Shown here: one piece after another, positions 13,344-54,653 of the stretch
Position numbering within the stretch: position 1 is the stretch's first letter
Layout: each line of letters starts with the position of its first letter
Assembly (NCBI GenBank): GCA_964615235.1
Contig: CAZTMK010000007.1
Coordinates: 22,630-86,629 of the forward strand
Length of the DNA: 64,000 nt
Source: an uncultured Thermoplasmatales archaeon
GTDB taxonomy: Archaea > Thermoplasmatota > E2 > DHVEG-1
Direction: 5' to 3'
Made by a program: the position numbers and the translations under genes
The notes under the pieces: model-generated
What the model saw: the letters and a program-made list of their open reading frames with translations, nothing else
Told to the model about the DNA's origin: nothing
Databases searched by the model: none

Positions 13344-16300
13344 ATGGGAAGAAATAAATTATTAAACAATTTATTTTTGTTCACGGTCTTTTTTATTACA
13401 ATTAGTTCTACTTTTGCTTTTTTAACAATAACTTCAACATCCTCTTCACTTGAACCAATGGATGAGGGCGATGGATTTTACCTTGTTGATACTTTTGAAG
13501 AGGCAGAAAATGTTTTGCTTACCAATTGCGAGATTTCAAACGGCAACATAATGCTTAAAACTGATGGAGGGGGAGTTGGGAAAAATTATGATTATTATGC
13601 AAGGTCATCGACCTCCAATAGCAAGGCCTATTACAATACTATATATAGTTCATTAATTTTCAATACTCTTTTTTCACCAAAATTACTAACTTTTTTTGAA
13701 AAGGAATTTGATGAAGATTTTGATTATCCTAAGATTGCGAGAATAGACGGAAATACATTTCCCTTTGCAGGACAACAGCAGCAGGATTCCAGATATAAAC
13801 GCATTCATCATTTCAGATTTTACATAGATGAAGAAACCAAAAAATATGCATCAAGAATAGATATTTTCTGGCGTGGTTACGCAAAAAACGATAGCGAATT
13901 GTCAATATATGTTTGGCAACCAGTTAATCAAATTATTAATTTTGGGGTGTGGGAAAAAGTAGCAAGCACAAAATCTGGTAGTACGTTTCTTAATTTAACA
14001 TATACTCAAATACTGGATTTATTTATTGGTAGCGACAACTATGTTGATTTCTGTATAGTGGCCGAGCCCGAACCAATGCAGAAATGCAATCTTTTTACTG
14101 ACTATGTTAATGTAACAGTATATCGTAGCGGTTATCCGTCTGAAGGAGAAGCAATATCATCAGTTGTTCGTCCCACAAATATAGAATCATGGGAACTTCT
14201 TACTTGGGAAGATAATGAAAAGGCGGGAACATCTGTTAGATATTATCTTTATAAAGTAAATCAAACAGGAGTCAAATCTCTTGTGGAAGAAACATATTTA
14301 CCGAGTAACAAAAACGGTTTTACTTCTGGCACCCCTATTATACTTAGCAAAATTCCAAAAAATTATTCGCTGCAGATTAAGGCGGTCTTGACGACAAATA
14401 ATGCTTCAAATTCCCCTGAGATTTCATCTTGGGCAATAACCTGGCAAAAAGATTTTTACTCTTGGAGTGACAGCTTTAATTCTTCTCTTCGATTGGTGGA
14501 AGGATCTATAGCTAATGTTGACGTGCGAGACGGTAATGCAAGTCTTATTCCTCTGTTCAACGACTGGGAAATGTTTGGAAAAAATTCTAATAATAACAGA
14601 ATTTCAGATGGTGCAGGTCCTACGCAATATTCGACTTATTGGTACTCGTTTGTTGGTGCTGGTAGAGGCCACAGAAATGGAGTGGTGAAACAAGGAGTAT
14701 TTTACATACCTTCAAGTAACGGAAGAACCATTTATTCATTTGATGCCGATAAAAAAACTGGCGCCCTTCAGGCAAATAATCACGATTACAAAAAAACATA
14801 TACTTTGCCAGGTGGTTTGATTGTAAATACATCCCTTGCCGTTACTGACGAACTGGTCATTGTGGTAACTGATACGCCAGGAACTGAGAATAAAATTATC
14901 GCCCTAAATAAAAATGACCTATCCAATCAAAAATGGATTTATTCAGACCCAGATCATGAAAACATTCGCTTTGCTTCTCCCCCTGTTATTCACAATAATA
15001 AAATTTATGTTACCTCATATGGCAGGAGCAAAAAACTTATTGTACTTAGCAGCTATGGAACGCGAGTGTGGGAAAAAACCCTACCAGGCGATTGCGTATC
15101 AAGTCCTGCGATATATTCCAATAAGATAATTGTTGGATGTAATTCAGAAAATGAAAATAATTTTATTGCATATGATATGAATGGAAACCAACTTTGGGAA
15201 CAAACGGTTGGTCCGGTTGGAAAAGCTTCGCCCGTGATTTATGACGACAAAATCTTTGTTACAGTAAAAGATCCTGTGCCATTAACTAACCTAGCTTACA
15301 CAAAATTATATGCTCTAGATCTTGCTGATGGTAAAACATTATGGAATTTTACATTAACATCAGCAAAGAAATTTAATCTTCCCAATGCGGATGATATCGC
15401 TGCCTCTTGCACTCCTGTTGCATATGATGATTTAATTTATGTTCCTTCACCTGATTGCAAACTTTATGCATTGAATATTTTAGATGGATCAGTATCAGAT
15501 CTATGGGAAAAAAACCCGTATAATCTTTATGATAGTTTGGTTCCACCTACGAAAGGACAAACCTCCTCGGTGGCCTATGCTGATGGAATACTATATATAG
15601 GTTCATCTTCGGGAGCGATTTATGCAATTGATGCATCTGATGGCTCACTTGTTTGGAAAAAATCAACTTACAATAGTAATCCTGTTTTATCTTCTCCAAT
15701 TGTAGTAGACGGATTGATTTATTATACTGATGAAGATGGAAGTTTATATTGTGCGGGTAAACCAATAGGATCAGCAGGTACACAAATTCAGGGGACTGTT
15801 ATTTCCATTCCTATTAAATTGCCGACACCAACATCCGATTATGCGTGGGATAGATTCTACGTTAATTATTCTCTGGGTGGGGGTAAGATTACTTTATCAA
15901 TACTAGATAAACAAGGAAAAACAATTAGAAGTGGTTTATACGATGATTATGACATCTCCAAATATGCTAAAAATTATGACACATTAAAACTGCGGGCTGA
16001 CTTTACCGGTAATGTTACTTATCAACCTAGATTATATGATTGGACGGTTACATTTGTAGAATCTAGTGATGTTTCCACAAAAACCATTTTTGATTCTGGA
16101 AGTTTGGTATCAACCGGTACTTTCCCTAACATCAGTTATTCAATTGATGTTAAAAACGAATATTTCGGTTTGATAAACACTTCTGCAGAATACAATCTAC
16201 AATTTCAAAATAAATCAAATCCTGTCCTACAGGAATTAGGCTGGACATCAGCCAATATAACAGGCTTAAACGGGTCAAAATTAACTGGAAAAATTACGGC

Positions 16301-17834
16301 CGATATTAAAAAACAAAAATTTAGTACTAATATCACCCTTATAAATATACGTTTTAGGATAACTGATATTTCAGGCATTATAACTGCTTCCGAATGGTAT
16401 CAAATTGGTCAATCTTATGACAACAAACTTCCAATATTTTATCCGAATACTTTCACACCTGCGGATGGATGGATTACATCAAATACTCCTACGTGTACAA
16501 TTAAAGTAAGAGATTATTATGATGCACAGAATGTAACGGGGCTGAATGTTAAATCTGCAAAAGCAACAATTACTTATGAAGAAAATTCGGTGGAAAAAAC
16601 TAATACTTTTAATGCTAGTTGTACTGGAATTAACGGGACAAAAAGCCAGCAGACAATATCAATTGATATCTCAAAATTGTCAATAAAAGATGATATAGAC
16701 GAACTAATAAATATTAAATTTTGTATTGAAGATATGGCAGGAAATTCAAATTGTTCACCTGTTATACCATTTAGTGGAGATACTGAAAAACCTTATTCAT
16801 ACATTTCAAATTCAGCAGATATCGATGACAACATCAACACTACGCCAGTTGTTGTTAAGGCAGTTGCTAACGATAATCTGAGTGGAATACAAAGTGTGAC
16901 TCTTTACTTCCGTATATCATCCACCAGTCAGTGGGTTGTTTTTGGAGTTGATTCTACATCTCCATATCAGTGGGAATTTTCTAGATCAAGCGGTCCTTTC
17001 CAGCTATGTACAGTTGCTAAAGATAAAGCCGGTAATATTCAAGACTATCCTACTACTGCACCCGTTTCCTTTTTATTTGATCCGGTTAAACCCTCTCAAC
17101 CAAATTATGTAACAGGTAAGGATTATGCATTTGATGAAGTTCCTTCATTTGATGATATTAAATTTGAAGATGACTACAAACTTGATAAGGTTGAATATAA
17201 ATCGGATATAATTTCAGATAGTGCTTGGATTGTTATTGGAGACAATATCAATAGTAAAAGTTACACACCCGAATGGAGTTTAACTGAAGATGATTGGGAT
17301 GCAATGGTTGAAGGAGAAATCTATCACATATTTTTCAGATTGACAGATACCTTGAATAATCAATACGTTTCAACTTCCTCTGATGCAATGAAGATTAAAA
17401 AGGATTTATCTACTCCCATTGTTGAAGATTATAATCCTGATCTTTCTGATTTTTCAAATTGGCGTTGGGACAACAAGTACAAAATAACTGTTAAAATTGT
17501 GGATGAAAGTAAAATATCTAATATTAAACTCTTTTATAGTTACTCCTCTGATAACGAAACATGGAGTAACTGGACCCAATATGGAATAGATACAAATTCT
17601 CCTTTCTCCTGGGATTTTACAGCAAGCGAGGGTAGCGGATTTTACAGATTTAAAACGTTGGTAAAAGAATCCAGCGGTTTAGAAAAAGAATCTAGTGTTA
17701 AATATGCAAGTGTCACAAACATTTCAATGTTTTTATTAATACTCATGGTGATGATAGCAGTCATTTTGATAGTAGTAACGGCACTAGTAGTTGTTTCTCG
17801 ACCAGGAAGAAAGGCTAAGAAGAACCAAAAATAA
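13344..17834 (+). CDS. Giant (1496 aa) secreted surface protein. It has a signal peptide, a PQQ-type beta-propeller region, Ig-like 'AGN' domains, and a C-terminal TM anchor with a basic tail.
   Basis: N-terminal signal/TM. BamB/PQQ-like repeats (IYVTSYGRSK..., ILYIGSSSGAIYAIDASDGSLVWK..., LIYYTDEDGSLYC). C-terminal domains contain CIEDMAGNSN...SGDTEKP and AKDKAGNIQ...PVKPSQP. The last ~40 aa are a hydrophobic helix followed by RPGRKAKKNQK. Confidence 0.8.
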   Translation: MGRNKLLNNLFLFTVFFITISSTFAFLTITSTSSSLEPMDEGDGFYLVDTFEEAENVLLTNCEISNGNIMLKTDGGGVGKNYDYYARSSTSNSKAYYNTIYSSLIFNTLFSPKLLTFFEKEFDEDFDYPKIARIDGNTFPFAGQQQQDSRYKRIHHFRFYIDEETKKYASRIDIFWRGYAKNDSELSIYVWQPVNQIINFGVWEKVASTKSGSTFLNLTYTQILDLFIGSDNYVDFCIVAEPEPMQKCNLFTDYVNVTVYRSGYPSEGEAISSVVRPTNIESWELLTWEDNEKAGTSVRYYLYKVNQTGVKSLVEETYLPSNKNGFTSGTPIILSKIPKNYSLQIKAVLTTNNASNSPEISSWAITWQKDFYSWSDSFNSSLRLVEGSIANVDVRDGNASLIPLFNDWEMFGKNSNNNRISDGAGPTQYSTYWYSFVGAGRGHRNGVVKQGVFYIPSSNGRTIYSFDADKKTGALQANNHDYKKTYTLPGGLIVNTSLAVTDELVIVVTDTPGTENKIIALNKNDLSNQKWIYSDPDHENIRFASPPVIHNNKIYVTSYGRSKKLIVLSSYGTRVWEKTLPGDCVSSPAIYSNKIIVGCNSENENNFIAYDMNGNQLWEQTVGPVGKASPVIYDDKIFVTVKDPVPLTNLAYTKLYALDLADGKTLWNFTLTSAKKFNLPNADDIAASCTPVAYDDLIYVPSPDCKLYALNILDGSVSDLWEKNPYNLYDSLVPPTKGQTSSVAYADGILYIGSSSGAIYAIDASDGSLVWKKSTYNSNPVLSSPIVVDGLIYYTDEDGSLYCAGKPIGSAGTQIQGTVISIPIKLPTPTSDYAWDRFYVNYSLGGGKITLSILDKQGKTIRSGLYDDYDISKYAKNYDTLKLRADFTGNVTYQPRLYDWTVTFVESSDVSTKTIFDSGSLVSTGTFPNISYSIDVKNEYFGLINTSAEYNLQFQNKSNPVLQELGWTSANITGLNGSKLTGKITADIKKQKFSTNITLINIRFRITDISGIITASEWYQIGQSYDNKLPIFYPNTFTPADGWITSNTPTCTIKVRDYYDAQNVTGLNVKSAKATITYEENSVEKTNTFNASCTGINGTKSQQTISIDISKLSIKDDIDELINIKFCIEDMAGNSNCSPVIPFSGDTEKPYSYISNSADIDDNINTTPVVVKAVANDNLSGIQSVTLYFRISSTSQWVVFGVDSTSPYQWEFSRSSGPFQLCTVAKDKAGNIQDYPTTAPVSFLFDPVKPSQPNYVTGKDYAFDEVPSFDDIKFEDDYKLDKVEYKSDIISDSAWIVIGDNINSKSYTPEWSLTEDDWDAMVEGEIYHIFFRLTDTLNNQYVSTSSDAMKIKKDLSTPIVEDYNPDLSDFSNWRWDNKYKITVKIVDESKISNIKLFYSYSSDNETWSNWTQYGIDTNSPFSWDFTASEGSGFYRFKTLVKESSGLEKESSVKYASVTNISMFLLILMVMIAVILIVVTALVVVSRPGRKAKKNQK

Positions 17835-22508: not shown

Positions 22509-24224
22509 ATGAAAAATAAATTTGTGGCTGATATTTTATACCAAATCGCGGATTTGCTTGATATAAAAGGAGAAATTTTTTTTAAAACCAGGGCCTATAG
22601 GATGGCTGCACAAACTATAGAAGTTCTTGACGAAGATATTGAAACTGTATTAAAGGAAGGTAGACTTGAATCTATTCAAGGTGTTGGAGAAGCACTGGCA
22701 AAAAAAATTAAAGAAATTGTAGAAACCGGAAAACTTGAATATTTTGAAAGATTAAAAAAGGAAATTCCTGAGGGATTGCTTGAACTATTAGAATTGCCCG
22801 GTTTGGGCCCAAAAAAGGTGGCAGCACTTTATAAGAATCTAGGTATAACCACGGTAGATTCTCTTAGAACAGCTTGCATCCAGGGCAAACTTAGAGATTT
22901 GGATGGATTCGGAGAAATAACTGAGAGAAATATACTTAGGGGAATTCAATTAAAAGAAAAAACGAGCGGTCGCGTACTTCTAAATGTGGCCTATCAAGAT
23001 GGAAACAAGTATCATGATTACATAAAAAAGTGTTCAGAAGTTAACAAGTCTGCTCTTGCAGGAAGTTTCCGCAGGAAAAAAGAAACAATTGGTGATCTTG
23101 ACATTCTTGTTTCTTCTGAAAATCCTGACGAGGTAATGGATCATTTCGTAAATTATCCAGATGTTTCAAGAGTTTTGATGAAAGGACCGACGAAAAGTAG
23201 CGTTCTTCTCTTGGATGGTTTACAGGTAGATTTGCGGGTTGTAAAAAAGGAAAGTTACGGGGCGGCCTTGCAATATTTTACAGGTTCAAAGGAACATAAT
23301 GTTAAAATGCGCAGCATTGCAATAAAAAAAGGCTTCAGATTAAATGAATATGGTTTGTTTGAAAAAGATGCAGAGAAATACGTTGCTGGTCGTATAGAAA
23401 AAGATGTATATTCTGCCCTTGGCCTAGAGTATATAGAGCCAGAGTTGCGGGAAAACATGGGTGAAATTGAGGCAGCATCCGAAGGGAAATTACCACATCT
23501 TGTAGAATACAAGGATATCTTGGGAGACTTACATATTCATTCAATTTACAGTGATGGATCAGACTCTATAGAAACTATTGCAACTCATGCCAAAAAATTA
23601 GGTTACAAATATGTTGGTATTGCAGATCATTCTCAGTCCTTGAAGGTTGCTGGGGGACTTTCTGAAGAAAGTTTAATTAAAAAGCAAAATGAAATTCAGC
23701 AGATTAACAAAAAACTAGAGGGCATTACAGTACTTTTCGGCACAGAATGTGATATTAAAACAGATGGAAATTTGGACTATCCTGACTCAGTGCTGGCTAA
23801 ATTTGATTTTGTGATTGTTGGAGTGCATACTGCTTTGAAAATGGATGCAAAACAGATGGAAAAAAGAATTCTATCCGGAATTGAAAATGAACACGCAAAT
23901 ATATTGGCTCATCCAACTGGAAGATTGATTGGCAGGCGTGAACCATTTAAAATTGATATAGAAAATCTAATTGATGCTGCGAAAAAAACAAACACATTTT
24001 TAGAAATAAATTCGTTTCCAGATAGACTGGATTTAAATAATGTACATGCTAAACTAGCAAAAGAAAAGAAAGTAAAATGTGTTATAGGAACAGATGCTCA
24101 TAGCATTGCTAATATGACCTATATGGAATTTGGGGTAGCAACGGCAAGAAGAGGTTGGCAGGAAAAAAGCGATATTTTAAACACTTATGGCTTAAAGGAA
24201 TTCGAGAAAATGCTGGGTAAATGA
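22509..24224 (+). CDS. polX: DNA polymerase X family protein (pol-beta-like core plus C-terminal PHP phosphoesterase domain).
   Basis: HhH motifs, the nucleotidyltransferase motif GSFRRKKETIGDLDILV, and the PHP motifs HIHSIYSDGSDS, GIADHS and GTDAH. Confidence 0.85.
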   Translation: MKNKFVADILYQIADLLDIKGEIFFKTRAYRMAAQTIEVLDEDIETVLKEGRLESIQGVGEALAKKIKEIVETGKLEYFERLKKEIPEGLLELLELPGLGPKKVAALYKNLGITTVDSLRTACIQGKLRDLDGFGEITERNILRGIQLKEKTSGRVLLNVAYQDGNKYHDYIKKCSEVNKSALAGSFRRKKETIGDLDILVSSENPDEVMDHFVNYPDVSRVLMKGPTKSSVLLLDGLQVDLRVVKKESYGAALQYFTGSKEHNVKMRSIAIKKGFRLNEYGLFEKDAEKYVAGRIEKDVYSALGLEYIEPELRENMGEIEAASEGKLPHLVEYKDILGDLHIHSIYSDGSDSIETIATHAKKLGYKYVGIADHSQSLKVAGGLSEESLIKKQNEIQQINKKLEGITVLFGTECDIKTDGNLDYPDSVLAKFDFVIVGVHTALKMDAKQMEKRILSGIENEHANILAHPTGRLIGRREPFKIDIENLIDAAKKTNTFLEINSFPDRLDLNNVHAKLAKEKKVKCVIGTDAHSIANMTYMEFGVATARRGWQEKSDILNTYGLKEFEKMLGK

Positions 24225-26213
<1,989 letters not shown>

Positions 26214-26222
26214 AGGAATAAT

Positions 26223-26432
26223 ATGCCAGAATGTAGAGTTGAAGAAAACAAATCCAATTGCAATTGTACCTATCCATGCAGCAAAAAAGGCATGTGTTGC
26301 AAGTGCATTTATTCCCATAGAATTGCTGGTGAATTACCTGCTTGTTATTTCCCTGATGATGTTGAAAGGACGTATGATAGAACTATTGAAAATTTTATTA
26401 AAATCTATCAGTCTAGAGGAAGATGGTGGTAA
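26223..26432 (+). CDS. Small cysteine-rich protein (10 Cys in 69 aa).
   Basis: [46 protein letters not shown]. It resembles a conserved small Cys-rich family seen in anaerobes. The assignment is tentative. Confidence 0.4.
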
Positions 26433-26477: not shown

Positions 26478-26900
26478 ATGACTGAAAGTAAGGAGAGAAT
26501 TATTCCGATTATTGCGATTTGCGCGCTTTTAATAGGATCTTTTTCCTCGATTTATGTTTACGGGCTAAATTCCAATTATGAATCTAATGAAGATGTCATA
26601 GTAATTAACGGTGAGGAATATTTACTAGAATATCTTTTTTCAAGTATTATCATAAGAAATTTAGATTCTGTTAACGCATCAGGCATTGCCTTGGATAATA
26701 TTATTACTTCAATAAACGTTAATTGCCCCTCCTGCAATTCCTATAAAATTATTGGCAAAGACAGTTATTCTCAGACAGTTACTTGGGAAAATATGCAGAA
26801 CGGTGTTTTGACTAGTGAATTAAAAGTTGTTTTTTCCGATTTACCAAAGGCATTTAATGTTAAAGATGTAGTAGAAATTGAGGTGATACATAATGGATAA
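26478..26900 (+). CDS. Hypothetical membrane-anchored protein.
   Basis: N-terminal TM (IIPIIAICALLIGSFSSIYVYG). No recognisable domain. Confidence 0.4.
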   Translation: MTESKERIIPIIAICALLIGSFSSIYVYGLNSNYESNEDVIVINGEEYLLEYLFSSIIIRNLDSVNASGIALDNIITSINVNCPSCNSYKIIGKDSYSQTVTWENMQNGVLTSELKVVFSDLPKAFNVKDVVEIEVIHNG

Positions 26901-27540
26901 AATGAAATTGATTGCAGGAATAATAGTATTTGGATCAATTTGGGGATTTGCAGAATGCATAATCGGTCCAAAATTATCTGACGTTGGATTACCATCTGGA
27001 GCATTAATGACTAGTCTCTTTGCAATTGGTTTAATGGTCACAAGCAGGATGTTTTACAAGCAGAGAGGTATGCAGCTTGGAATGGGTCTTGTTGCAGGAA
27101 TCTTACGACTTTTTAATCCGTTTGGAGGTTGCGTTGTTTGCTCTGCAATTGCTATAGCTGCAGAAGGACTTTTGTTTGAACTTGTCTGGTACAAAATGTC
27201 ACTTGACTTAAAGGATTTACAAACTAATACAATGAAGGTAAGCATGGGAATAATTTCTTCATATGTTATTTACGTCGGGGGCTACATTACAACACAGATA
27301 CTAACTCCACTTGTATCCACATCGGGTTTCTTCTTGGAAAATTTATTGGGGTTCATACCACAAATATTATCAAGAGGACTTCTTGCTGGAATTATCGGTG
27401 CAGTTACAGTTCCATCGGTTTTACTTCTTAAAGATATAAATATTGAAATCTTAAAAGATAAGCTGTATTATCCTACGGTTGGTGCGGTTTCTTTGTTTTG
27501 TTGGATTTTTGTGGTTGTAAATTGGTTTATTTTTGTTTAG
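26893..27540 (+). CDS. Polytopic membrane protein, possibly a transporter substrate-binding component. Function unknown.
   Basis: About six predicted TM helices. It overlaps the upstream ORF by 8 nt. Confidence 0.45.
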   Translation: MDKMKLIAGIIVFGSIWGFAECIIGPKLSDVGLPSGALMTSLFAIGLMVTSRMFYKQRGMQLGMGLVAGILRLFNPFGGCVVCSAIAIAAEGLLFELVWYKMSLDLKDLQTNTMKVSMGIISSYVIYVGGYITTQILTPLVSTSGFFLENLLGFIPQILSRGLLAGIIGAVTVPSVLLLKDINIEILKDKLYYPTVGAVSLFCWIFVVVNWFIFV

Positions 27541-27551
27541 GAGAATTTTTG

Positions 27552-28001
27552 ATGGATAAACCTAAAACCGTAAAAATTTTAAAATTTCATGCTGAAAAAT
27601 GTAAGGGATGTTTTGAATGCGAAAAAGCATGTTCAAAGGTTCATTTTAAAACAGATGAAGGCAGGGAGAAATCTGCAATTAGAATAATTAAGCAAAACGG
27701 GAAATTTAAGATGCATGTTTGCGATCAAAGAGGCTTATGTATTGACATGTGTCCTGTCGGGGCATTGACAAGAAGAAAAAATGGGGTAGTTTGGCTTGAT
27801 AAAGAAACTTGTATAGGTTGTCAGGCGTGTGTGGGATTTTGCCCGATAGGTGCAATGAGAAAATCCGATGCAAGAATTGAGCCTTTTAAGTGTATTTCAT
27901 GTGGTGCTTGTGTTAGGGCATGTCCCGAAAAGGCCTTGGAACTGGTGGAAGTCAAAATTGATCATATCAAAGATGTAGTTTACCATAAATTGGGGGCATA
28001 A
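27552..28001 (+). CDS. 4Fe-4S multi-cluster ferredoxin, the electron-transfer subunit of the adjacent AOR.
   Basis: AGGAG Shine-Dalgarno before the ATG at 27552. Four Cys clusters (CKGCFECEKAC, CDQRGLCIDMCP, CIGCQACVGFCP, CISCGACVRACP). The stop abuts the AOR start. Confidence 0.75.
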   Translation: MDKPKTVKILKFHAEKCKGCFECEKACSKVHFKTDEGREKSAIRIIKQNGKFKMHVCDQRGLCIDMCPVGALTRRKNGVVWLDKETCIGCQACVGFCPIGAMRKSDARIEPFKCISCGACVRACPEKALELVEVKIDHIKDVVYHKLGA

Positions 28002-28003
28002 AA

Positions 28004-30328
28004 TTGGCTGAAGGACAAATTCCCATAGAAGAATACGAAACAGGAAACACAAAACACAAGTGGGATTTGAAAAAAATAAAATCAGCACACAAGATTATTT
28101 CAGAATATAAATTTAAAAAATCTGAAATCCAGAAAGGATTTGCAAATAGAACTCTTTATGTTAATCTATCTACCGGAGAAATCAAGGAAAAAAAAGTAAC
28201 AGAAGATATGAAAAAGAAATTTACCGGCGGTCGGGGATTTGGTTTAAAACTAATGTGGGATTCAATAAAACCCACGACAAGATGGGATAGTCCAGAAAAC
28301 GAGTTAATTATTACTACTGGTCCTTTATGCGGTGTTACTCAATATGCGGGCTCCGGAAAGTCATTGTGTTTAACAGTTTCACCTTCAACTGATATAATTT
28401 GTGATAGCAATGTTGGAGGCTTTTTTGGCCCTTATCTAAAGTTTGCAGGTTTTGATGCAATTGAGATTCAGGGTAAGGCAAAGCAAGACGTAATAATTCT
28501 TGTTGATGGCGAGGAAGGAAAAATTACTATTGAAACGGCACCATTGGAAGAAACTAATTCACATTTGATTGCCGAACAATTAACACATTTGTACGCCTCT
28601 GAAAACACAGATAAATCTAGGCAAAAAGTATCAGTTGTTTCTGCAGGAACTGCAGCAGAACACAGTTACTGGGGTTGTATGAATTTTTCATTTTTTGACA
28701 TTCGCAGAAAGGTTCCAAGAATTAAACAAGCTGGTAGAGGAGGTTTAGGAACTGTTTTACGTGATAAGAAAATCAAGGCAATTGTTGCAAAAGTGGAAAA
28801 GTTTGACGGCGTTTCAAACAATCCTGCTGATCCTGCAAAACTTGTGGAAGTTGGAACTAAACTTCATAGAGAGATTAGAGACCTTGATAAGTATCAGTGT
28901 AACATGAGGGCGGTTGGTACAGTCCATCTTGTTGAGATTATGGATCAATATGATTTGTTGCCAACTGAGAATTATCGTTTCGGAAGCTTTCCCAAAGCAT
29001 CTAAGATTTATTCGCCTGAATTCTATAGATATTTTACAAAAATAATACCTGATGGGTGCTGGCATGGATGCACAATGGCATGTGCAAAAACTGTCGATGG
29101 ATTTACTGTTATGACTGGGCCTTACAAGGGAGAAAGAGTCACAGTAGATGGACCTGAATACGAAACCTGTGGGTGCGGTGCAAACATGAGTCTTTGGGAT
29201 CCAAAATGGATTTTGGAGTTTAACTTCTATTGTGACACGTATGGGCTTGATACAATATCTACAGGAACTTCAATTGCATTTTACATGGAAATGTACGAAT
29301 ATGGAATTTTAAACAAGGAACGATGTGATGGACTCGAGCTTTGTTTTGGAAACGGTGAGGCAGCACTGGAATTTATTCACAGAATAGCTAAGGGAGATAA
29401 GGGAGAGTTTGTAAAAGTTGCTGCAAAAGGCATAAGAAGAGTAAAGGATTGGCTAATCGAGAAGGGATGGGGAGATCCTCAGCTCATTGATGATTGTGGA
29501 ATGGAAAGTAAGGGTTTGGAGTATTCTGAATATGTAACAAAAGAATCCCTAGCAATGCAAGGAGGATATGGACTTACGTTGAAAGGTCCGCAACATGACG
29601 AAGCATGGTTGATTTTCATGGATATGGTTAACAATCAGATTCCAACTTTTAAAGACAAGGCAGAAGCCCTTCATTACTTTCCAATGTGGCGAACTTGGTT
29701 TGGATTGAACGGCCTATGTAAACTTCCTTGGAATGACGTTGAACCCGAAAATAACGCAGAGACAGACGAACCTGCAAAAGTTCCAGAGCATGTACAAAAT
29801 TATGTGGATTATCAAAATGCTGTGACAGGTTGGAAGGTAAACAAAGAAGAGCTTATTTTACAAAGCGAACGTTGTTATAATTGGCAAAGAGCAATGAACG
29901 TTTGGCTAGGTCGTGGTAGACGAAAGGATGATTGGATTCCTTACAGATCAATGGGTCCTGTTACTGAAATGGAGTATATTTCAAGAAGGGATAGGTATGA
30001 TAAACAACTTGTGGAAAAACTTGATCTTGCCGGAGAAGAAGTCGAAAAAATGCCTGTAGCCGAAAAAATAAAACTTTTGTACAATTATCGCCAGGATCAA
30101 TATCAAAAACTTGCCGATGCGGTGTATTTCCGGAGAGGCTGGACCCATAACGGCGTTCCTACCCCACAGAAAATGAAAAAGTTGGGATTTGATGATCCAA
30201 AAATATTAAAAATGTTACAAAAGGCAATTGATGAAGATGAAAAAGCCGGGCTCAATGTTTGGGGCGGAAAATACAAAAAAGGCGAGAAAGCACCGACTAC
30301 GGATCCCAGATATTGGGAAAAATGGTAA
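28004..30328 (+). CDS. Aldehyde:ferredoxin oxidoreductase family tungsto/molybdopterin enzyme, a long 774-aa form.
   Basis: The AOR N-terminal domain (RTLYVNLSTGEIKEKKVTEDMKKKFTGGRGFGL), a central DGPEYETCGCG block, and the overall AOR layout, with ~45-aa N-terminal and ~90-aa C-terminal extensions. The start appears to be TTG at 28004. Confidence 0.75.
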   Translation: MAEGQIPIEEYETGNTKHKWDLKKIKSAHKIISEYKFKKSEIQKGFANRTLYVNLSTGEIKEKKVTEDMKKKFTGGRGFGLKLMWDSIKPTTRWDSPENELIITTGPLCGVTQYAGSGKSLCLTVSPSTDIICDSNVGGFFGPYLKFAGFDAIEIQGKAKQDVIILVDGEEGKITIETAPLEETNSHLIAEQLTHLYASENTDKSRQKVSVVSAGTAAEHSYWGCMNFSFFDIRRKVPRIKQAGRGGLGTVLRDKKIKAIVAKVEKFDGVSNNPADPAKLVEVGTKLHREIRDLDKYQCNMRAVGTVHLVEIMDQYDLLPTENYRFGSFPKASKIYSPEFYRYFTKIIPDGCWHGCTMACAKTVDGFTVMTGPYKGERVTVDGPEYETCGCGANMSLWDPKWILEFNFYCDTYGLDTISTGTSIAFYMEMYEYGILNKERCDGLELCFGNGEAALEFIHRIAKGDKGEFVKVAAKGIRRVKDWLIEKGWGDPQLIDDCGMESKGLEYSEYVTKESLAMQGGYGLTLKGPQHDEAWLIFMDMVNNQIPTFKDKAEALHYFPMWRTWFGLNGLCKLPWNDVEPENNAETDEPAKVPEHVQNYVDYQNAVTGWKVNKEELILQSERCYNWQRAMNVWLGRGRRKDDWIPYRSMGPVTEMEYISRRDRYDKQLVEKLDLAGEEVEKMPVAEKIKLLYNYRQDQYQKLADAVYFRRGWTHNGVPTPQKMKKLGFDDPKILKMLQKAIDEDEKAGLNVWGGKYKKGEKAPTTDPRYWEKW

Positions 30329-30336
30329 TAAGTTAC

Positions 30337-30933
30337 ATGAATAAATCAATGTTTGATAAAATTAGGATAAAATTAAAAAGTTCTAGTGTTGGGATAGCAG
30401 GCATCGGTGGACTTGGATCAAATGTTGCAATTGCTTTAACAAGGGCAGGTGTTGGCCGACTTGTCTTAGTTGATTTTGATTTTGTTGAAAAAAAAAATCT
30501 AGATAGACAATACTTTTTTCTTGATCAAGTTGGTAAACTAAAAACAACTGCAATCAAAGAAAACATTAAAAAAATAAATCCCGAAACAATCGTTGAAACC
30601 CACGAAATTAGACTTGAAAAAGGAACGATGGAAAAGCCATTTAGAAATGTCGACGTAATTATCGAGGCATTGGATAGTGCAGAAATAAAAACTTTATTTA
30701 TTGAAGAAATCCTTGAAAAACTCCCAGATAAACCAATAATTGCAGCTTCGGGAATCACGGGTTACGGTCACTGTGAAAGATTTAATACAAAATGCTTAGG
30801 CAACCTCTACATGTGCTATGATGAGGAGGCGAAATCCAGCGATGAGGATATTCTTTTTGCACCAAGAGTTGCAATAGCAGCCAACTGGGAGGCGAATCTG
30901 GCCTTAGAGCTTTTATTGGGGAAAGACCAATGA
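30337..30933 (+). CDS. E1-like adenylyltransferase of the ThiF/MoeB/UbaA family (short form).
   Basis: Gly-rich nucleotide loop VGIAGIGGLGSNVAIALTRAGVGRLVLVDFDFVEKKNLDRQ. The ORF track start 30259 overlaps the AOR gene. The ATG at 30337 is the likely start. Confidence 0.7.
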   Translation: MNKSMFDKIRIKLKSSSVGIAGIGGLGSNVAIALTRAGVGRLVLVDFDFVEKKNLDRQYFFLDQVGKLKTTAIKENIKKINPETIVETHEIRLEKGTMEKPFRNVDVIIEALDSAEIKTLFIEEILEKLPDKPIIAASGITGYGHCERFNTKCLGNLYMCYDEEAKSSDEDILFAPRVAIAANWEANLALELLLGKDQ

Positions 30934-31130
30934 GCATCACAGTAAATAAAAGGACAGTTGACTGGCTAGAAAATGAGACAGTGACCCAGCTTCTGAAACG
31001 TATGAAATATACTTTCCCTCTGATAATTGTAAAAATCGATAAAAAAATAATACCAAGAAAAGATCATAATAGCTACATTATTCCCAATGGATCTGAAGTT
31101 GATGTTATTCATATGATAAGTGGAGGCTAG
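30930..31130 (+). CDS. ThiS/MoaD/SAMP-like beta-grasp sulfur-carrier or ubiquitin-like protein ending in Gly-Gly.
   Basis: 66 aa. The C-terminus is ...VIHMISGG followed by a stop. The ATG overlaps the E1 stop (ATGA). Confidence 0.7.
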   Translation: MSITVNKRTVDWLENETVTQLLKRMKYTFPLIIVKIDKKIIPRKDHNSYIIPNGSEVDVIHMISGG

Positions 31131-31141
31131 TGATTTTATTT

Positions 31142-32059
31142 TTAACCTATTACACTGCCCAATACCGCTAATATGGAGAAACTTATTGCAAAAAGTAGAT
31201 ATGTAAAGTACATCAGAGACCATGCTTTGGTATTTTCAAATAAAGCACTTCGAGTCTTGTCTTTTACCATGGAGTAGAATATTAGATAACCAGGTATTGC
31301 AAATAAAGTAAGTATCATAAAATGCGGTTCAAGTATTCCAACGCTAATTACTAAAGGAACAAAGGTAAATGGAATAAATAGGAATGGAAGGGCCATAAAG
31401 GCTGCTTTTTTTATCCCGTATGTATTTACCAAAGTTTTGGTGCCAGTGCTTTTATCTGCATCTTTGTCCGTTATATCTTTTGTAATTGTTCCACCAATTA
31501 AAAACAACATTGCCATACTTCCTATGATAATGGGTAGGGGCTCAAACAAATTGCCAAAAAGACTCCAAGAAGCAAAAATTCCCAATAATCCTCTCGGAAT
31601 TGCTACCCATAGCTGATTTAGAAATAATTGATCTTTCATTCTGGGCGGTAGAGAATAAGATATTGTAAAGATTGCAATTGATAGCACCAAAATAAAAAAC
31701 ATTGCATTTATAAAAAATGCAAGACTCAAAGCAAGTGTGTATAACATATATGAAATGGCTGTAGCTTTTTTAACTGATATTACTCCTCTAGGAATGGGCC
31801 TGTAAGGTTTTGAAATTCTATCTGTTGCTAAATCAGTTGCTTGATTTAGAATGTTTGATGCTGCATTAAGTATAGATATGCAGAATCCAGAAGGTAAAAT
31901 CATTCTGAAAAATACATCGGCAAAAACCCCGGAGGCTTTATTATAAAAAAAACTTGCAATCATAATACTTATTGATACGATAAATGGAGTTAGTAAAGTA
32001 AATGGACGAAGCAGATCAATATAACCTTTTAATCTATTATTAAAATCCAATTTTTTCAA
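31142..32059 (-). CDS. UbiA-family membrane prenyltransferase.
   Basis: The NQATDLATDRISKPYRPIP Asp-rich motif and ~8 TM helices. Confidence 0.7.
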   Translation of the reverse strand: MKKLDFNNRLKGYIDLLRPFTLLTPFIVSISIMIASFFYNKASGVFADVFFRMILPSGFCISILNAASNILNQATDLATDRISKPYRPIPRGVISVKKATAISYMLYTLALSLAFFINAMFFILVLSIAIFTISYSLPPRMKDQLFLNQLWVAIPRGLLGIFASWSLFGNLFEPLPIIIGSMAMLFLIGGTITKDITDKDADKSTGTKTLVNTYGIKKAAFMALPFLFIPFTFVPLVISVGILEPHFMILTLFAIPGYLIFYSMVKDKTRSALFENTKAWSLMYFTYLLFAISFSILAVLGSVIG

Positions 32060-40694: not shown

Positions 40695-41087
40695 ATGGGC
40701 AATACCGACGTTGTAGAATTGGATAAAATGCGTTGGAAAGAGATTGTCAAAAATGGGGATAAACCTGCAATGGTAATGTTTTATAGTCCCACATGTGTGC
40801 ATTGTAAGGCAATGGAGCCACATTTTAACAAATATGCTGAAGAATTAAAAAACAAAATCGTTTTTGCAAGGTTAAATATAATCGACAACCAAGAAATTGT
40901 TGCAAGATACGGAATAATGGGAACCCCAACTTTTAAATTGTTTTGCGGGGGTCACCCAATTCAAGAACTTGTGGGAGAGATTTATCCTAGCTTATTAAAA
41001 AAGACTATTGATGACTTGTTTAATTATGGACATCATTGCGTAAAAACAACAACTTGGTTTAAACCTGGAATTACTGGTTATGCATAA
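40695..41087 (+). CDS. Thioredoxin-like protein with an atypical CVHC active site.
   Basis: MVMFYSPTCVHCKAMEP. Thioredoxin fold length of 130 aa. Confidence 0.65.
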   Translation: MGNTDVVELDKMRWKEIVKNGDKPAMVMFYSPTCVHCKAMEPHFNKYAEELKNKIVFARLNIIDNQEIVARYGIMGTPTFKLFCGGHPIQELVGEIYPSLLKKTIDDLFNYGHHCVKTTTWFKPGITGYA

Positions 41088-41670
41088 TTTAGATTTTGAG
41101 GTTCTTATGGAATTAATTGAAGTTATTAATAAAAGGAGGGCATATCGTTCACTTGATAAAACTCAGATATCTGAGGAACTTATCAATTATCTTGCAGAAA
41201 GTGCAAGGTTATCAGCATCTTGCTTTAACAATCAACCTTGGAGATATGTCTTTGTTTATGATTCAAAGGTTCTTAAGGAGATGCATAATGTATTATCATC
41301 AGGTAATGAGTGGGCAAAAAGGGCATCAATGATTGTTGCAGTATGTAGTAAGAAGGAAGATGATTGCTTGATAAAAGATCGGGAATATTATTTATTTGAT
41401 ACAGGAATGGCCTCTGCTTTTTTAATTCTAAGGGCAACTGAACTTGGGCTAGTTGCACACCCAATTGCAGGGTATAGTCCAAAAAAAACACGAGAAATTC
41501 TAAACATCCCAGAGGAAATGGATGTAATAACATTGGTAATTGTTGGCAAACACTCTGACAAGATTTATCCAGAGCTTTCGGCAAAACAAATCCAAACAGA
41601 AAAAAAAAGACCTGAGCGTAAAAAAATCAAAGAATTTGTATATATGAATAAATGGAAGGGAAATAACTGA
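41080..41670 (+). CDS. Nitroreductase-family flavoprotein.
   Basis: RRAYRSLDK...CFNNQPWRYVFV N-terminal nitroreductase signature. It overlaps the thioredoxin gene by 8 nt. Confidence 0.7.
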   Translation: MHNLDFEVLMELIEVINKRRAYRSLDKTQISEELINYLAESARLSASCFNNQPWRYVFVYDSKVLKEMHNVLSSGNEWAKRASMIVAVCSKKEDDCLIKDREYYLFDTGMASAFLILRATELGLVAHPIAGYSPKKTREILNIPEEMDVITLVIVGKHSDKIYPELSAKQIQTEKKRPERKKIKEFVYMNKWKGNN

Positions 41671-41951
41671 TGAGAATTGAGAAGGTGAAGGGTAAAAACA
41701 AGGGAAAAATTATGTTGTATGCGCTTAGTACATGCGTATGGTGTAAAAAAACAAGAAAATTTTTAGATGGACTTGGAGTTGAATATAATTACGTATATGT
41801 TGATCAATTAGAGGAAGATGATAGGAATAAAACAATTGAAGAAATAGAAAAGTGGAATCCAAGATGTTCTTTTCCGACCTTGGTTTTTAATGATGAAAAA
41901 TGTGTTGTTGGATATAAAGAAGACGAAATAAAAGAGGCATTAAAAATATGA
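41670..41951 (+). CDS. Glutaredoxin-like CxxC protein.
   Basis: [19 protein letters not shown]. 93 aa. Confidence 0.65.
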
Positions 41952-42457
41952 GTTTTGAACCTTCGTATGGAGAAATCGATAAGCTTTACAATAAACTTGA
42001 TAGAGAGGCTGAGGCATCTGGATATCACCTAAATCCCGATAAAGATTTTACAAAGGAACTTGTTAAAAGCCTTATAATTAATGAAAAACGTTACGGGTAC
42101 TGGGCCTGCCCCTGCAGATTAGCTTCAGGAGATAAACAAGAAGATCTTGATATAATATGTCCATGTGATTATAGAGATGCAGATGTTGATGAATACGGTG
42201 CTTGCTATTGTGCTCTGTATGTTTCCAGAGAGATAAAGGAAGGAAATAAAACTCCCGAATCTATTCCCGAACGACGACCACCAAGGGAAAAGAGATCCCA
42301 GATAAATAAAAACAAAACTTCGTCTTTTGTTTCTGGATCTTTAAAAAAGCCTGTTTGGAGATGCAGAGTTTGCGGTTATCTATGTGCTAGGGATGAACCT
42401 CCCGGAGTTTGCCCGATATGTAAGGCAAAAAAAGAGAGATTTGAAAGATTTCTATAG
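41948..42457 (+). CDS. Ferredoxin:thioredoxin/disulfide reductase catalytic subunit fused to a C-terminal rubredoxin-like domain (FDR type).
   Basis: The FTR catalytic motif CPC...CPC...CYC ([10 protein letters not shown]...IICPCDYRD...GACYCALYV) plus a rubredoxin-like CRVCGY...CPICKA tail. The same architecture is described for the Methanosarcina ferredoxin:disulfide reductase. Confidence 0.75.
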
Positions 42458-52370: not shown

Positions 52371-54653
52371 TTATTTTTTCAATATTGGAATTCCTTGATT
52401 ACTGAATCCATTATTTGGCTCATAAGGATTAAATGCAGGATCTCCTAAAAGAATACGAACATAGTAAGTTGGAAGTTCCTTATCCACCAATTTTTCTTGT
52501 CTAAGTGCTTCGCCAATGCTCAAATCATCCATAATTAAATGATTTTCTAGTGTAGCAAGTCCTGCCTCTCTACCAGTTTCCCTTGTTGCACCTATAAACG
52601 AATTACAGCCTGCGTGTAGCATTGTTGCCCCGATATTCATCCTTGGTGGGATTCCATCAATTCTTCCCATAAGACATGCCGATGTGAGAAAAATGCTAGG
52701 CTTTGAAAAAATCCAATTTTGTACATGGGCAATATCTATTGCCTTACTTAAATAATCAAAGCCATACCAAGATGGGGTATACCAATACCAATCTCCATGA
52801 CCTAAGTATTCAATATAATTTGAGCCAGTATAAGCATCTAAAAATTCTGTTATTTGCCGCCCGTTTCTGAAATCGCCAAAAACTCTTGGTTTAAACCCAA
52901 ATTTAGTAATTTCAATTGCATAAGGAATTTGATGAAAGATGCCGCCCGTTTCTCCGAATCCTTCTCCAAATATGAAACTGAATCTGTTATGCCAGTCATT
53001 TGAACTAGCTGGCTGATTGCAAATATCTTCATAAAACAAAGTTCTGTCGATTAATAAAGAAACATCCTGAACATCCCATCCGATGATTCTACCTACAGAT
53101 AAAGACCAATTGAGAGAATATGGATTATCTGAAGCAAGACCTTTTTCATAAAGAGTTGCCTGAGATGGTCCATAGTAATACATGGGAATCATGTTAGCAT
53201 CACCTAGTATTGCAAGCCATGCTGATCCTTCAAGGTATCCATCTAACAAATCGAAATTTTCCATCAATGCTAGGCTTTTTGTTAGTTCTGACAGTGTTAA
53301 ATTTACCTTTTCGTTGTTATGTAGATGTAGTTTTTCATTATAAGAAGGTCCTGAACCGGTTCCTTGGGCTTCATTGTAATAATCGTCTGATGTAAGTGCA
53401 AAATCTTCCTCGGCAATTATTAACCCGCCATGGGCGGCAGTTAAGTATGGGGCTAAAATTGAAAGGTTTGGAACAATAGGGTTATGTGGCTTATCTAAAA
53501 ATGACCTAGATATAGATATATCATAGTCGACGTCTGCAACTGATAGACCTCGTTGGGAAAAATATCCCCCTTTGATTCCGTGGTAAATTTTTACTTCCAA
53601 ATTATAATTTCCGGATAGATTGCAGGATAATGTTTCAAGATAAGTTTTACCGATGTCATAGCCGAGACTAGATGAATATGAAACAATGTTTTCATTAGGA
53701 TCAAACAGATAAGCTGTTATTATTGGAACAACATCTTTGAAAATTGAATTTCGCGTTTTTGTGATGTTTATGTAAATTTGAATTCGCTCTATTTCGTTTG
53801 AAACTGGGATTGAATATGATTTCTTGGGGTTACCTGCTAACTGAATTTCCCTGCTTCCAAGGGTTAATTTTACATTTGAGAATCTATCCTTAATAAGAGT
53901 TACATTCCTTGAAATAACAAAGTGTGGTACAACATCATATGGGTTTGTAATAGTTAGATAGTTGATTTTGCCAAAATTATTTTTAATTGCAGCTAGAATA
54001 GTATTTTGAATACTGTCCTTATTTATTAATTCAGTAATGGATATATCTGAAAGATTTACACTGATATTTCCTATAACATAGGCAGTAGATACATTCAATT
54101 GCTTGCACAGACTTTGTATTTCGTTTTCATTTTGATCAAAAATTAGGATTGGAATATTTAGGTAACTTGCAAGGGGACTAGCAATTAATCCGAGTTTGTA
54201 AGATTCATCTCCGTCATAAGGGAGGATCAGAACTGTATCGGTATATCTGAATGTCTGTTTTGCTAACTCTATTGAAACTTCAGGTGGATAGCCCAATATT
54301 TCATTTTTATTAAAATCAGTTGAAATTTTTTCCCCAAGAACCAAAAGTGATTTATTATTATCATCCAGATAATTACTCAAAAATAAAATCTGATGGTCTG
54401 TTAAAAATCCTTTATTTTGGACGATTAATGGACATAGCCCAGTAAGATTTTCATCAAAATCGTACCAACATGCCAAACTGCTACCAATTATGGCATAAAA
54501 TGGATCACCATCTGGAACAATCACAGCATTTGGATGAAAATTCCTATTGCTTTCAAATCCAAATTCTTCATAATTTTTTTCCCCCTCAATTGAATAAATA
54601 AAAATTGATGAAAAAAATAGAAAAAACAATAATAAGGTTGAAATTTTCTTCAT
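52371..54653 (-). CDS. Secreted clan CD cysteine peptidase, gingipain (C25)-like.
   Basis: Signal peptide. A His-Gly ... Ala-Cys catalytic dyad arrangement (YLGHGDWYW ... FLTSACLMGRIDG) spaced ~40 aa apart, as in C25/C11 peptidases. 760 aa with C-terminal beta-rich domains. Confidence 0.5.
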   Translation of the reverse strand: MKKISTLLLFFLFFSSIFIYSIEGEKNYEEFGFESNRNFHPNAVIVPDGDPFYAIIGSSLACWYDFDENLTGLCPLIVQNKGFLTDHQILFLSNYLDDNNKSLLVLGEKISTDFNKNEILGYPPEVSIELAKQTFRYTDTVLILPYDGDESYKLGLIASPLASYLNIPILIFDQNENEIQSLCKQLNVSTAYVIGNISVNLSDISITELINKDSIQNTILAAIKNNFGKINYLTITNPYDVVPHFVISRNVTLIKDRFSNVKLTLGSREIQLAGNPKKSYSIPVSNEIERIQIYINITKTRNSIFKDVVPIITAYLFDPNENIVSYSSSLGYDIGKTYLETLSCNLSGNYNLEVKIYHGIKGGYFSQRGLSVADVDYDISISRSFLDKPHNPIVPNLSILAPYLTAAHGGLIIAEEDFALTSDDYYNEAQGTGSGPSYNEKLHLHNNEKVNLTLSELTKSLALMENFDLLDGYLEGSAWLAILGDANMIPMYYYGPSQATLYEKGLASDNPYSLNWSLSVGRIIGWDVQDVSLLIDRTLFYEDICNQPASSNDWHNRFSFIFGEGFGETGGIFHQIPYAIEITKFGFKPRVFGDFRNGRQITEFLDAYTGSNYIEYLGHGDWYWYTPSWYGFDYLSKAIDIAHVQNWIFSKPSIFLTSACLMGRIDGIPPRMNIGATMLHAGCNSFIGATRETGREAGLATLENHLIMDDLSIGEALRQEKLVDKELPTYYVRILLGDPAFNPYEPNNGFSNQGIPILKK

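Follow-up and report, generated by a model that had tools for sequence, protein, structure and literature searches.

The window analyzed in this work, a stretch of 64,000 nt from contig CAZTMK010000007.1 of an uncultured Thermoplasmatales archaeon, carries between positions 27552 and 31130 of its forward strand four co-oriented and tightly packed genes. They encode a ferredoxin, an enzyme of the aldehyde oxidoreductase (AOR) family, a short E1-like adenylyltransferase and a ThiS-like beta-grasp protein. The gene calls were based on the open reading frame (ORF) map, the raw sequence and Pfam matches, and all three bear out the four genes as they had been placed in a first-pass annotation made from the sequence without database searches. 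The host of the operon is a sediment archaeon of the Thermoplasmata (MBG-D/Thermoprofundales-like), and the locus represents a further archaeal example of a system which was predicted earlier by comparative genomics. All features are listed in Table 1, including two genes directly upstream, named p140 and mem215 here.

The ferredoxin gene extends from an ATG to a TAA codon and has a GGAG ribosome-binding site in front of it. Only 2 nt past its end the AOR gene begins with a TTG, which is preceded at a distance of 7 nt by a GGGGG stretch, and it ends with TAA. The AOR frame opens at position 27989, behind an in-frame stop at 27986, and the TTG is the first canonical start thereafter; a non-ATG start is needed, because the first Met falls within the AFOR_N domain. 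The E1 gene follows after a gap of 8 nt. The ATG given in Table 1 is most likely its start, as both the N-termini of the homologs and an independent gene prediction for this contig agree with it; the alternative in-frame ATG would overlap the AOR stop. The E1 stop codon is TGA (30931-30933), and the gap to the ThiS-like gene, which runs from ATG to TAG and whose product ends with MISGG, amounts to -4 nt. The ATGA overlap (30930-30933), which the first-pass annotation had read as joining both genes, is thus real. Directly 3' of the last gene lies a T-run, which may act as an archaeal terminator and mark the end of the operon, and downstream of it the ORF map shows a convergent gene encoding UbiA.

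Table 1. Genes and sequence features of the AOR locus (positions refer to the window).
Feature	Position	Strand	Remarks
p140	26478..26900	+	membrane-anchored; N-terminal transmembrane helix and ~100-aa domain
mem215	26893..27540	+	7-helix membrane protein with ECF-transporter S-component-like predicted fold
Ferredoxin, WorS/AorA-type polyferredoxin small subunit	27552..28001	+	149 aa; four Fe-S motifs; Pfam Fer4 families
WorL, AOR-family tungstopterin subunit	28004..30328	+	774 aa; AFOR_N and AFOR_C; WOR clade 7
Short E1-like adenylyltransferase, ThiF family 2	30337..30933	+	198 aa; Pfam ThiF; alternative start 30322
ThiS-like beta-grasp sulfur-carrier protein ("WorX")	30930..31130	+	66 aa; Pfam ThiS PF02597; C-terminal GG
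T-run (TTTTATTTTT)	31134..31143	+	directly 3' of last gene; read from sequence

The large subunit matches both Pfam families of the AORs, AFOR_N (PF02730) with residues 49-263 (E 1.2e-51) and AFOR_C (PF01314) with residues 282-728 (E 2.1e-89), and its matches among the PDB sequences include 1AOR (2e-55). An alignment of the Cys ligands and of the pterin site with canonical AORs, which had been proposed in the first-pass annotation, revealed that all of the cluster and active-site residues are retained: the four cluster cysteines C352, C356, C360 and C572 are present, and T306, E387, Y510 and H531 align with T243, E313, Y427 and H448 of the Pyrococcus furiosus AOR. The cluster motif itself (residues 352-360) reads CX3CX3C and not CX2CX3C as in the canonical enzymes, i.e., the first Cys is off by one residue. 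This shift is common to nearly all long-form homologs aligned and to two relatives of 640-650 aa; one long-form homolog has no first cluster Cys. Two other identities within the family were considered and rejected, namely a YdhV-type (Class V) AOR, for which the model PRK09849 scores 105.9 against a cut-off of 868 and matches the N-domain only, and a GAPOR, whose model scores 22.9 against 1300.

With 774 aa the enzyme exceeds the canonical AORs considerably, and the first-pass annotation had called it unusually long, with extensions at both termini. The wider AOR family was collected by a search of a representative library at 50% identity and a species-level genome scan; for the search of AOR loci a tighter alignment was used and a first, more diverse one was set aside. 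A length of 773-775 aa is kept in more than 100 database protein clusters, with 82-91% identity and 100% coverage, and the named ones among them come from metagenome-assembled genomes of Thermoplasmata or Thermoplasmatales. Because the length is conserved in more than 100 clusters, a frame error behind the long AOR can be ruled out; the long form also occurs in cultured Clostridia. Thermoplasmata copies of the long form are 67-85% identical to the window AOR, and bacterial ones of approximately 715-725 aa and 55-62% identity were found in Bacteroidales, Clostridia, Cloacimonadota, Anaerolineae, Acidobacteriota and others, including the cultured species Alkaliphilus transvaalensis and representatives of Geosporobacter, Acidaminobacter and Thermotalea. 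Putumbaka et al. (2026; PMC13328260) list in their supplement, with CladeID 7, a 773-aa protein of "Proteinoplasmatales archaeon SG8-5", whose AOR contig LSSH01000039 corresponds to a locus of our sample (L015) with 72% identity to the window AOR, and likewise a 774-aa protein of Thermoplasmatales SM1-50 and entries from Thermotalea and Geosporobacter. On the basis of these 773- and 774-aa homologs the window AOR is assigned to WOR clade 7, a large, widespread and uncharacterized known clade which holds Class I as well as Class II enzymes (PMC13328260) and whose norm is the long form, the bacterial members having a length of about 718 aa.

Compared to the AOR of P. furiosus, approximately 169 residues are additional, of which about 45 are N-terminal, about 45 C-terminal and about 80 distributed over internal insertions. 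In the alignment with canonical AORs of 605-650 aa the largest insertion spans residues ~655-700, and the C-terminal tail extends from ~735 to 774. Since the bacterial homologs cover residues 19-742, only residues 1-18 and 743-774 are specific for Thermoplasmata. The length and the terminal extensions are real, as initially noted, but the length is the norm of clade 7, and internal insertions account for about half of what is added. An AlphaFold model (AF2; pLDDT 78, pTM 0.86), for which the multiple sequence alignment was built from database matches including homologs of a bacterial relative, places a confident helix and strand (residues 22-36) on the N-domain, a helical insertion at 655-711 and a C-terminal helix at 732-747 that runs out into coil. 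In a Foldseek search of the PDB libraries the top matches of this model were 1B25, 9G7J, 9MQX, 1AOR, 8C0Z, 4Z3W and 6X1O (TMt 0.71-0.83); no separate known fold was found for the extensions in these libraries, and the non-AOR matches were noise. This agrees with the earlier view that the extensions have no obvious assignment. According to the model, the additional segments decorate a normal three-domain AOR fold, with no recognizable separate domain.

The ferredoxin is similar over its full length to WorS 9mqx_E (9e-15), to AorA 8c0z_C (4.5e-13) and to the Fe-S subunit of WOR5, 6x6u_B (2.6e-8). Among the loci with full flanks that were sampled around AOR genes, 11 of them archaeal and 35 bacterial, a ferredoxin adjoins the AOR in all 11 archaeal and in 12 of the bacterial loci. 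The adjacent WorS-type small subunit has four [4Fe-4S] motifs, so that by the published definition the enzyme is to be classed as a Class II WOR composed of WorL and WorS. Its earlier description as a four-cluster ferredoxin is correct with regard to the four motifs, but motif 2 has only three Cys. The protein contains 15 and not 16 Cys residues, as motif 2 reads C57-x5-C63-x3-C67P with R60 replacing the second Cys. R60 is also found in close relatives; some close relatives lose a Cys of motif 1 instead. Motif 2 is complete in many homologs, and more distant ones keep all 16. Because Arg60 stands where a Cys is expected, one of the clusters may be a 3Fe cluster or may have a ligand other than Cys.

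The E1-like protein and its small partner were compared with the NCBIfam models. The E1 exceeds the cut-offs of two ThiF models, NF006395 ("ThiS adenylyltransferase ThiF"; 224.5 vs. 159) and TIGR02354 (family 2; 196.7 vs. 152.2), and fails those of the MoeB models TIGR02355 (78.1 vs. 376.55) and NF004281 (87.3 vs. 266); MoeZ is also far below. The score for the UbaA model NF047750 is 70.8 compared to a cut-off of 450. The 66-aa protein exceeds the ThiS cut-off of TIGR01683 (44.8 vs. 37.45) and ends with SGG. Its nearest solved sequences are ThiS proteins of weak similarity, and no close solved structure was found for the E1 in the search of the PDB sequences. We then surveyed the motifs of 33 AOR-linked E1s and 55 AOR-linked ThiS-like proteins. 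The glycine-rich loop GxGGLGS, NLxRQ and EAxDxAxxK are conserved among the E1s. A Zn-binding CxxC is absent from the window E1 and present in just one of the 33, the sole semi-conserved Cys (C160) occurs in 25 and is replaced by Val or Ile in eight, and two archaeal family members have no Cys at all. All 55 ThiS-like proteins possess a conserved core of 65-67 aa and the C-terminal GG. With the adenylation motifs kept, no Zn site and no invariant Cys, the family fits an adenylyltransferase that operates without a thioester, in the manner of MoeB.

These characteristics bear on one of the two readings offered in the first-pass annotation, according to which the genes represent an archaeal SAMP/UbaA-like pair that conjugates the 66-aa protein to targets or thiolates tRNA. 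The pair indeed shares with the SAMP-UbaA system of Haloferax volcanii an archaeal beta-grasp protein with C-terminal GG and an E1-like partner. There is a weak similarity to SAMP2 (5lda_B, E 0.12), and archaeal ubiquitin-like proteins are functionally versatile (Makarova and Koonin, 2010; PMC2948915). However, the 198-aa E1 remains far below the UbaA model and has neither the Zn site nor the invariant Cys, no gene for a JAMM protein, an E2 or a PP-loop ATPase was seen among the recurrent neighbors in the Pfam surveys of archaeal and bacterial loci, and the same pair stands beside bacterial AORs. We regard a conjugation or tRNA-thiolation pair as highly improbable and favor, for the reasons given by the E1, the other reading of the first-pass annotation, namely a MoaD/MoeB-type sulfur relay dedicated to the cofactor of the AOR.

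Gene neighborhoods provide evidence for this interpretation. The ThiF-ThiS pair directly follows the AOR on its downstream side in seven of the 11 archaeal loci. Of the 35 bacterial loci, 29 have a ThiS-like gene within 3 kb of the AOR, and in 14 an E1 gene is present as well. Orders and strands vary between lineages; in Bacteroidales the pair is often located upstream of the AOR and divergent. A second sample, independent of the first, was anchored on the E1 in metagenomes and comprises 50 assessable loci, i.e., loci with enough flank or a positive match. Here an AOR-family gene lies within 5 kb in 39 cases; six loci have thiG/thiH and five have neither. The AORs concerned include clades with just 33-42% identity to the window AOR. 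The E1s with at least 53% identity to the window E1 and a usable upstream flank follow an AOR without exception (11 of 11). As the linkage recurs in unrelated phyla, in different orders, on different strands and with different AOR clades, shared inheritance of the gene order cannot explain the association of AOR, ThiS-like gene and E1. Further genes at the bacterial loci encode pyridine nucleotide-disulfide oxidoreductases and radical-SAM proteins, which Iyer et al. had already noted.

In addition, a gene for a 93-aa pyrimidine/purine nucleoside phosphorylase (Ppnp) recurs directly beside the long-form AOR or its E1/ThiS pair in Bacteroidales and accounts for nine of the 129 neighbor ORFs scanned (e.g., L055:10232-10513 and L117:4990-5271).

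Automatic annotation would name the pair a bacterial-type ThiF/ThiS for the synthesis of the thiamine thiazole, in line with NF006395, TIGR02354 and TIGR01683, all of which score above their curated cut-offs, and with the presence of real thiF-thiS-thiG-thiH operons within the same E1 family (thiG/thiH linkage confirmed by Pfam for L118, L155 and L150). In a neighbor-joining tree, however, the thiG/thiH-linked E1s, which are ~44-47% identical to the window E1, form one separate bacterial subclade, and the window E1 falls into a Thermoplasmata clade in which all members are AOR-linked. Scanning of the window ORFs, with about a dozen (mostly secreted or membrane proteins, and the ORFs at 54.7-63.4 kb) left unscanned, yielded no thi, moa, moe or tungstate-transport genes, and the Pfam survey of 11 archaeal and 29 bacterial loci detected no thiamine gene among the recurrent neighbors; thiG, thiH, thiC and thiE were found in neither set. 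The first-pass annotation had named an alignment with ThiS together with nearby thiG/thiH as the pattern that would speak for thiamine: the alignment exists, but thiG/thiH are missing from the scanned window ORFs and the related loci. Archaea moreover have no ThiG and ThiF orthologs and use another thiazole route (Iyer et al., 2006; PMC1779556). A role in thiamine synthesis thus appears very unlikely to us.

With a probability of roughly 0.6, the locus is best explained as encoding a tungsten aldehyde oxidoreductase of Class II together with a sulfur relay dedicated to its pyranopterin cofactor. The relay is favored because the linkage extends over Archaea and many bacterial phyla with varied gene orders and no thiamine context. 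The WorS polyferredoxin and the 774-aa WorL would form the enzyme, for which we infer tungsten as the metal and whose tungsto-bis-pyranopterin site would oxidize aldehydes to acids. Electrons would pass from the [4Fe-4S] cluster of WorL to the clusters of WorS and further to ferredoxin. The E1 and the 66-aa carrier, the latter designated WorX by Putumbaka et al. (2026; PMC13328260), would be accessory proteins and not subunits: using ATP, the E1 would adenylate WorX at its C-terminal Gly-Gly, the adenylate would be turned into a thiocarboxylate by a persulfide donor whose gene lies elsewhere, and the sulfur would be transferred to the pyranopterin cofactor. Its most likely use would be the formation of the dithiolene with a MoaE-type partner; less likely, it would become a sulfur ligand at the tungsten.

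Several observations weigh against this explanation. Both the E1 and the carrier score above the cut-offs of the NCBIfam "equivalog" models for the ThiF and ThiS of thiamine synthesis, and because true thiG/thiH-linked E1s reach the identities stated above, sequence alone cannot separate cofactor and thiamine roles. In the literature the role of WorX and the E1 stands as a prediction. No gene for MoaE, MoaA, MoeA, a tungstate transporter or a sulfurtransferase came up in those parts of the window that were scanned, the source genome being accessible only as this window. In three archaeal relatives (L004, L005 and L013) the pair was not found within 8 kb of the AOR, and in L002 a distance of 3.6 kb with three unrelated genes on the opposite strand separates it from the AOR, with its neighbors UbiA and LigT kept. 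The Thermoplasmata pair in general also stays syntenic with UbiA and LigT.

The inserted genes of L002, which is a close relative of the window locus (L002:12353-15896), encode a 550-aa protein, a TrmB-like regulator and an FAD/NAD oxidoreductase.

The loci in which the pair is separated or missing would be compatible with a general cellular sulfur-carrier system whose adjacency to the AOR is merely inherited, and archaeal ThiS-family genes do occur in varied contexts (PMC2948915). Against such a general system stand the linkage in unrelated bacterial phyla, with other orders, strands and AOR clades, and the intergenic distances of just 8 nt and -4 nt in the window. We consider it quite unlikely.

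In a further alternative, the pair serves the AOR at a step other than dithiolene synthesis, such as the supply of a labile sulfur ligand of tungsten or the repair of a sulfur-depleted cofactor, for which MoaE would not be needed. It draws on the same linkage evidence, and a MoaE partner was seen neither in the scanned window ORFs nor among the 25 most frequent neighbor families, although its gene could lie outside the window. Sulfide reportedly activates AOR-family enzymes of P. furiosus, a hint that their metal site holds a labile sulfur. No system is known in which a ThiS/MoaD-type thiocarboxylate supplies a terminal metal sulfido ligand. In addition, MoaE and MoaA are occasionally encoded in such neighborhoods (PMC1779556), which points to dithiolene synthesis. 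We judge such another step as unlikely.

The arrangement can be compared with several known or predicted systems. Iyer, Burroughs and Aravind (2006; PMC1779556) described a "tungsten cofactor biosynthesis" cluster with MoaD, AOR, MoeB, MoaE, MoeA, a pyridine disulfide oxidoreductase and a 4Fe-4S ferredoxin, and proposed that the AOR-linked carrier makes the molybdopterin for the tungsten cofactor. Makarova and Koonin (2010; PMC2948915) noted the association of archaeal ThiS-family genes with AOR and found no thiamine context, and Putumbaka et al. (2026; PMC13328260) reported WorX and thiF beside WORs. Both the neighborhood of Iyer et al. and that of CsWOR87 from Cetobacterium somerae (PMC13328260) resemble the window in combining an AOR subunit with an adjacent ThiS-like GG protein, a ThiF-type E1 and a 4Fe-4S ferredoxin; the same role in pterin cofactor synthesis is predicted, and remains a prediction in all cases. 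In contrast to CsWOR87, the window enzyme has an archaeal host, belongs to Class II with a WorS subunit and to clade 7, and is accompanied in Thermoplasmata by two extra membrane-associated genes upstream.

AorABCDE of Aromatoleum aromaticum (PMC6365974, PMC10413684) likewise consists of an Fe-S small subunit with four motifs (AorA) and an AOR large subunit, and its operon contains small beta-grasp maturation genes whose products are not part of the purified A. aromaticum enzyme; Arndt et al. (2019; PMC6365974) regarded aorD and aorE as putative maturation factors. The large subunit of the window is ~160 aa longer, and the FAD subunit AorC is missing, so that no coupling to NAD is expected. 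Moreover, the A. aromaticum operon has two MoaD-like genes and no E1, whereas the window has an E1 and a ThiS-like carrier. WOR5/ASOR of P. furiosus and GOR of C. bescii are built of WorL and WorS as well (large-subunit TMt ~0.76; for the small subunit, see the 6x6u_B match above), but they represent clades 40 and 20, whereas the window enzyme belongs to clade 7 and has clade-specific insertions and the CX3CX3C motif. The chemistry proposed here, from GG adenylation to the thiocarboxylate with no E1 thioester needed, is that of MoaD-MoeB from Escherichia coli, from which the window differs in the low MoeB scores, the missing CxxC Zn site, the absence of moaE nearby and a carrier that scores as ThiS and not as a MoaD-specific family. 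With the bacterial ThiS-ThiF family 2 (TIGR02354) the window pair shares the E1/carrier family by hidden Markov model cut-offs, at the identity to thiG/thiH-linked members given above; it differs from the thiazole systems by its subclade and by the fact that thiG/thiH were not found.

Upstream of the four genes and on the same strand, p140 overlaps mem215 by 8 nt, and mem215 ends 11 nt before the ferredoxin gene. Both are conserved upstream of the ferredoxin-AOR genes in Thermoplasmata loci down to 33-41% identity and are absent from the bacterial AOR loci sampled. In Thermoplasmata the two genes seem to be part of the operon, with p140 probably as its first gene. p140 possesses a signal-anchor helix. 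Five of 14 family members or paralogs match PF00174 weakly (Oxidored_molyb; best E 5.4e-6), and UniProt labels the SM1-50 counterpart as molybdopterin-binding-domain-like, too; the window p140 itself gave no Pfam match even at E = 1, and the p140 profile had no meaningful match among the PDB sequences. Judged by these similarities, the p140 domain resembles the molybdopterin-binding domain of oxidoreductases and may be distantly related to it.

For mem215, 656 homologs were retrieved, all of them "hypothetical". None of the alignments shows variation in GSxWGxxE or C83, and C80, which completes a CxxC, is nearly invariant. The predicted 7-helix fold resembles that of an energy-coupling factor (ECF) S component. 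mem215 gave no Pfam or NCBIfam match to a known S-component family, and neither an ABC ATPase nor EcfT turned up among the window ORFs scanned or in the archaeal neighborhoods; the protein could be a solitary S component. This pair of an S-component-like and a molybdenum cofactor-domain-like protein is previously undescribed. Tentatively, and with considerable doubt, p140-mem215-ferredoxin-AOR-E1-WorX might be seen as a six-gene module in which the upstream pair serves the tungstoenzyme as its own system for uptake or capture. Candidates for the cargo are a pterin precursor and, in sulfidic sediment, tungstate or thiotungstate, and the enzyme might be docked to p140-mem215 by the Thermoplasmata-specific tails of the AOR (residues 1-18 and 743-774).

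A second set of genes lies a few kb upstream of p140-mem215-ferredoxin-AOR in several relatives. It encodes MobB, an EamA transporter and a ~200-aa molybdopterin-binding-domain-like protein and was found in L002 (L002:5111-7269) and in the SM1-50 neighborhood (supplement of PMC13328260). The window has LigA and a DUF6485 gene there; the latter (26223-26432) lies between LigA and p140 and encodes a Cys-rich protein of 69 aa, which occurs at the same position in L004 and L008.

Tungstoenzymes of the AOR family are widespread in anaerobes, gut bacteria included, and the AOR of Thermoprofundales is discussed in the literature as a source of reduced ferredoxin. How the tungsten cofactor is supplied to these enzymes is poorly understood, and the foremost candidate for a maturation step of their own is the recurrent pair of ThiS-like protein and E1, to which the present locus adds an archaeal Class II example. 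Since most of the sampled "ThiF family 2" E1s adjoin AORs and not thiamine genes, the routine annotation of such genes as thiamine ThiF/ThiS is probably wrong for many genomes, and the family name is probably misleading for most of the members sampled. For the acquisition of tungsten or pterin in sediment archaea, p140-mem215 provides a concrete new target.

Apart from the operon, the window encodes a family-X DNA polymerase with a PHP domain beside a NAD-dependent DNA ligase of bacterial type (LigA; 22509-26213) in a genome that otherwise looks archaeal and contains an archaeal CCA-adding enzyme, an archaeosine tRNA-guanine transglycosylase and NOG1. A redox cluster at 40695-42457 comprises genes for a thioredoxin, a nitroreductase-family protein, a glutaredoxin-like protein and a fusion of the catalytic subunit of ferredoxin:thioredoxin reductase with a rubredoxin-like domain. 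Three very large proteins rich in Ser, Thr and Asn with signal or anchor segments are encoded at 28-2859, 13344-17834 and 52371-54653; they are probably surface proteins.

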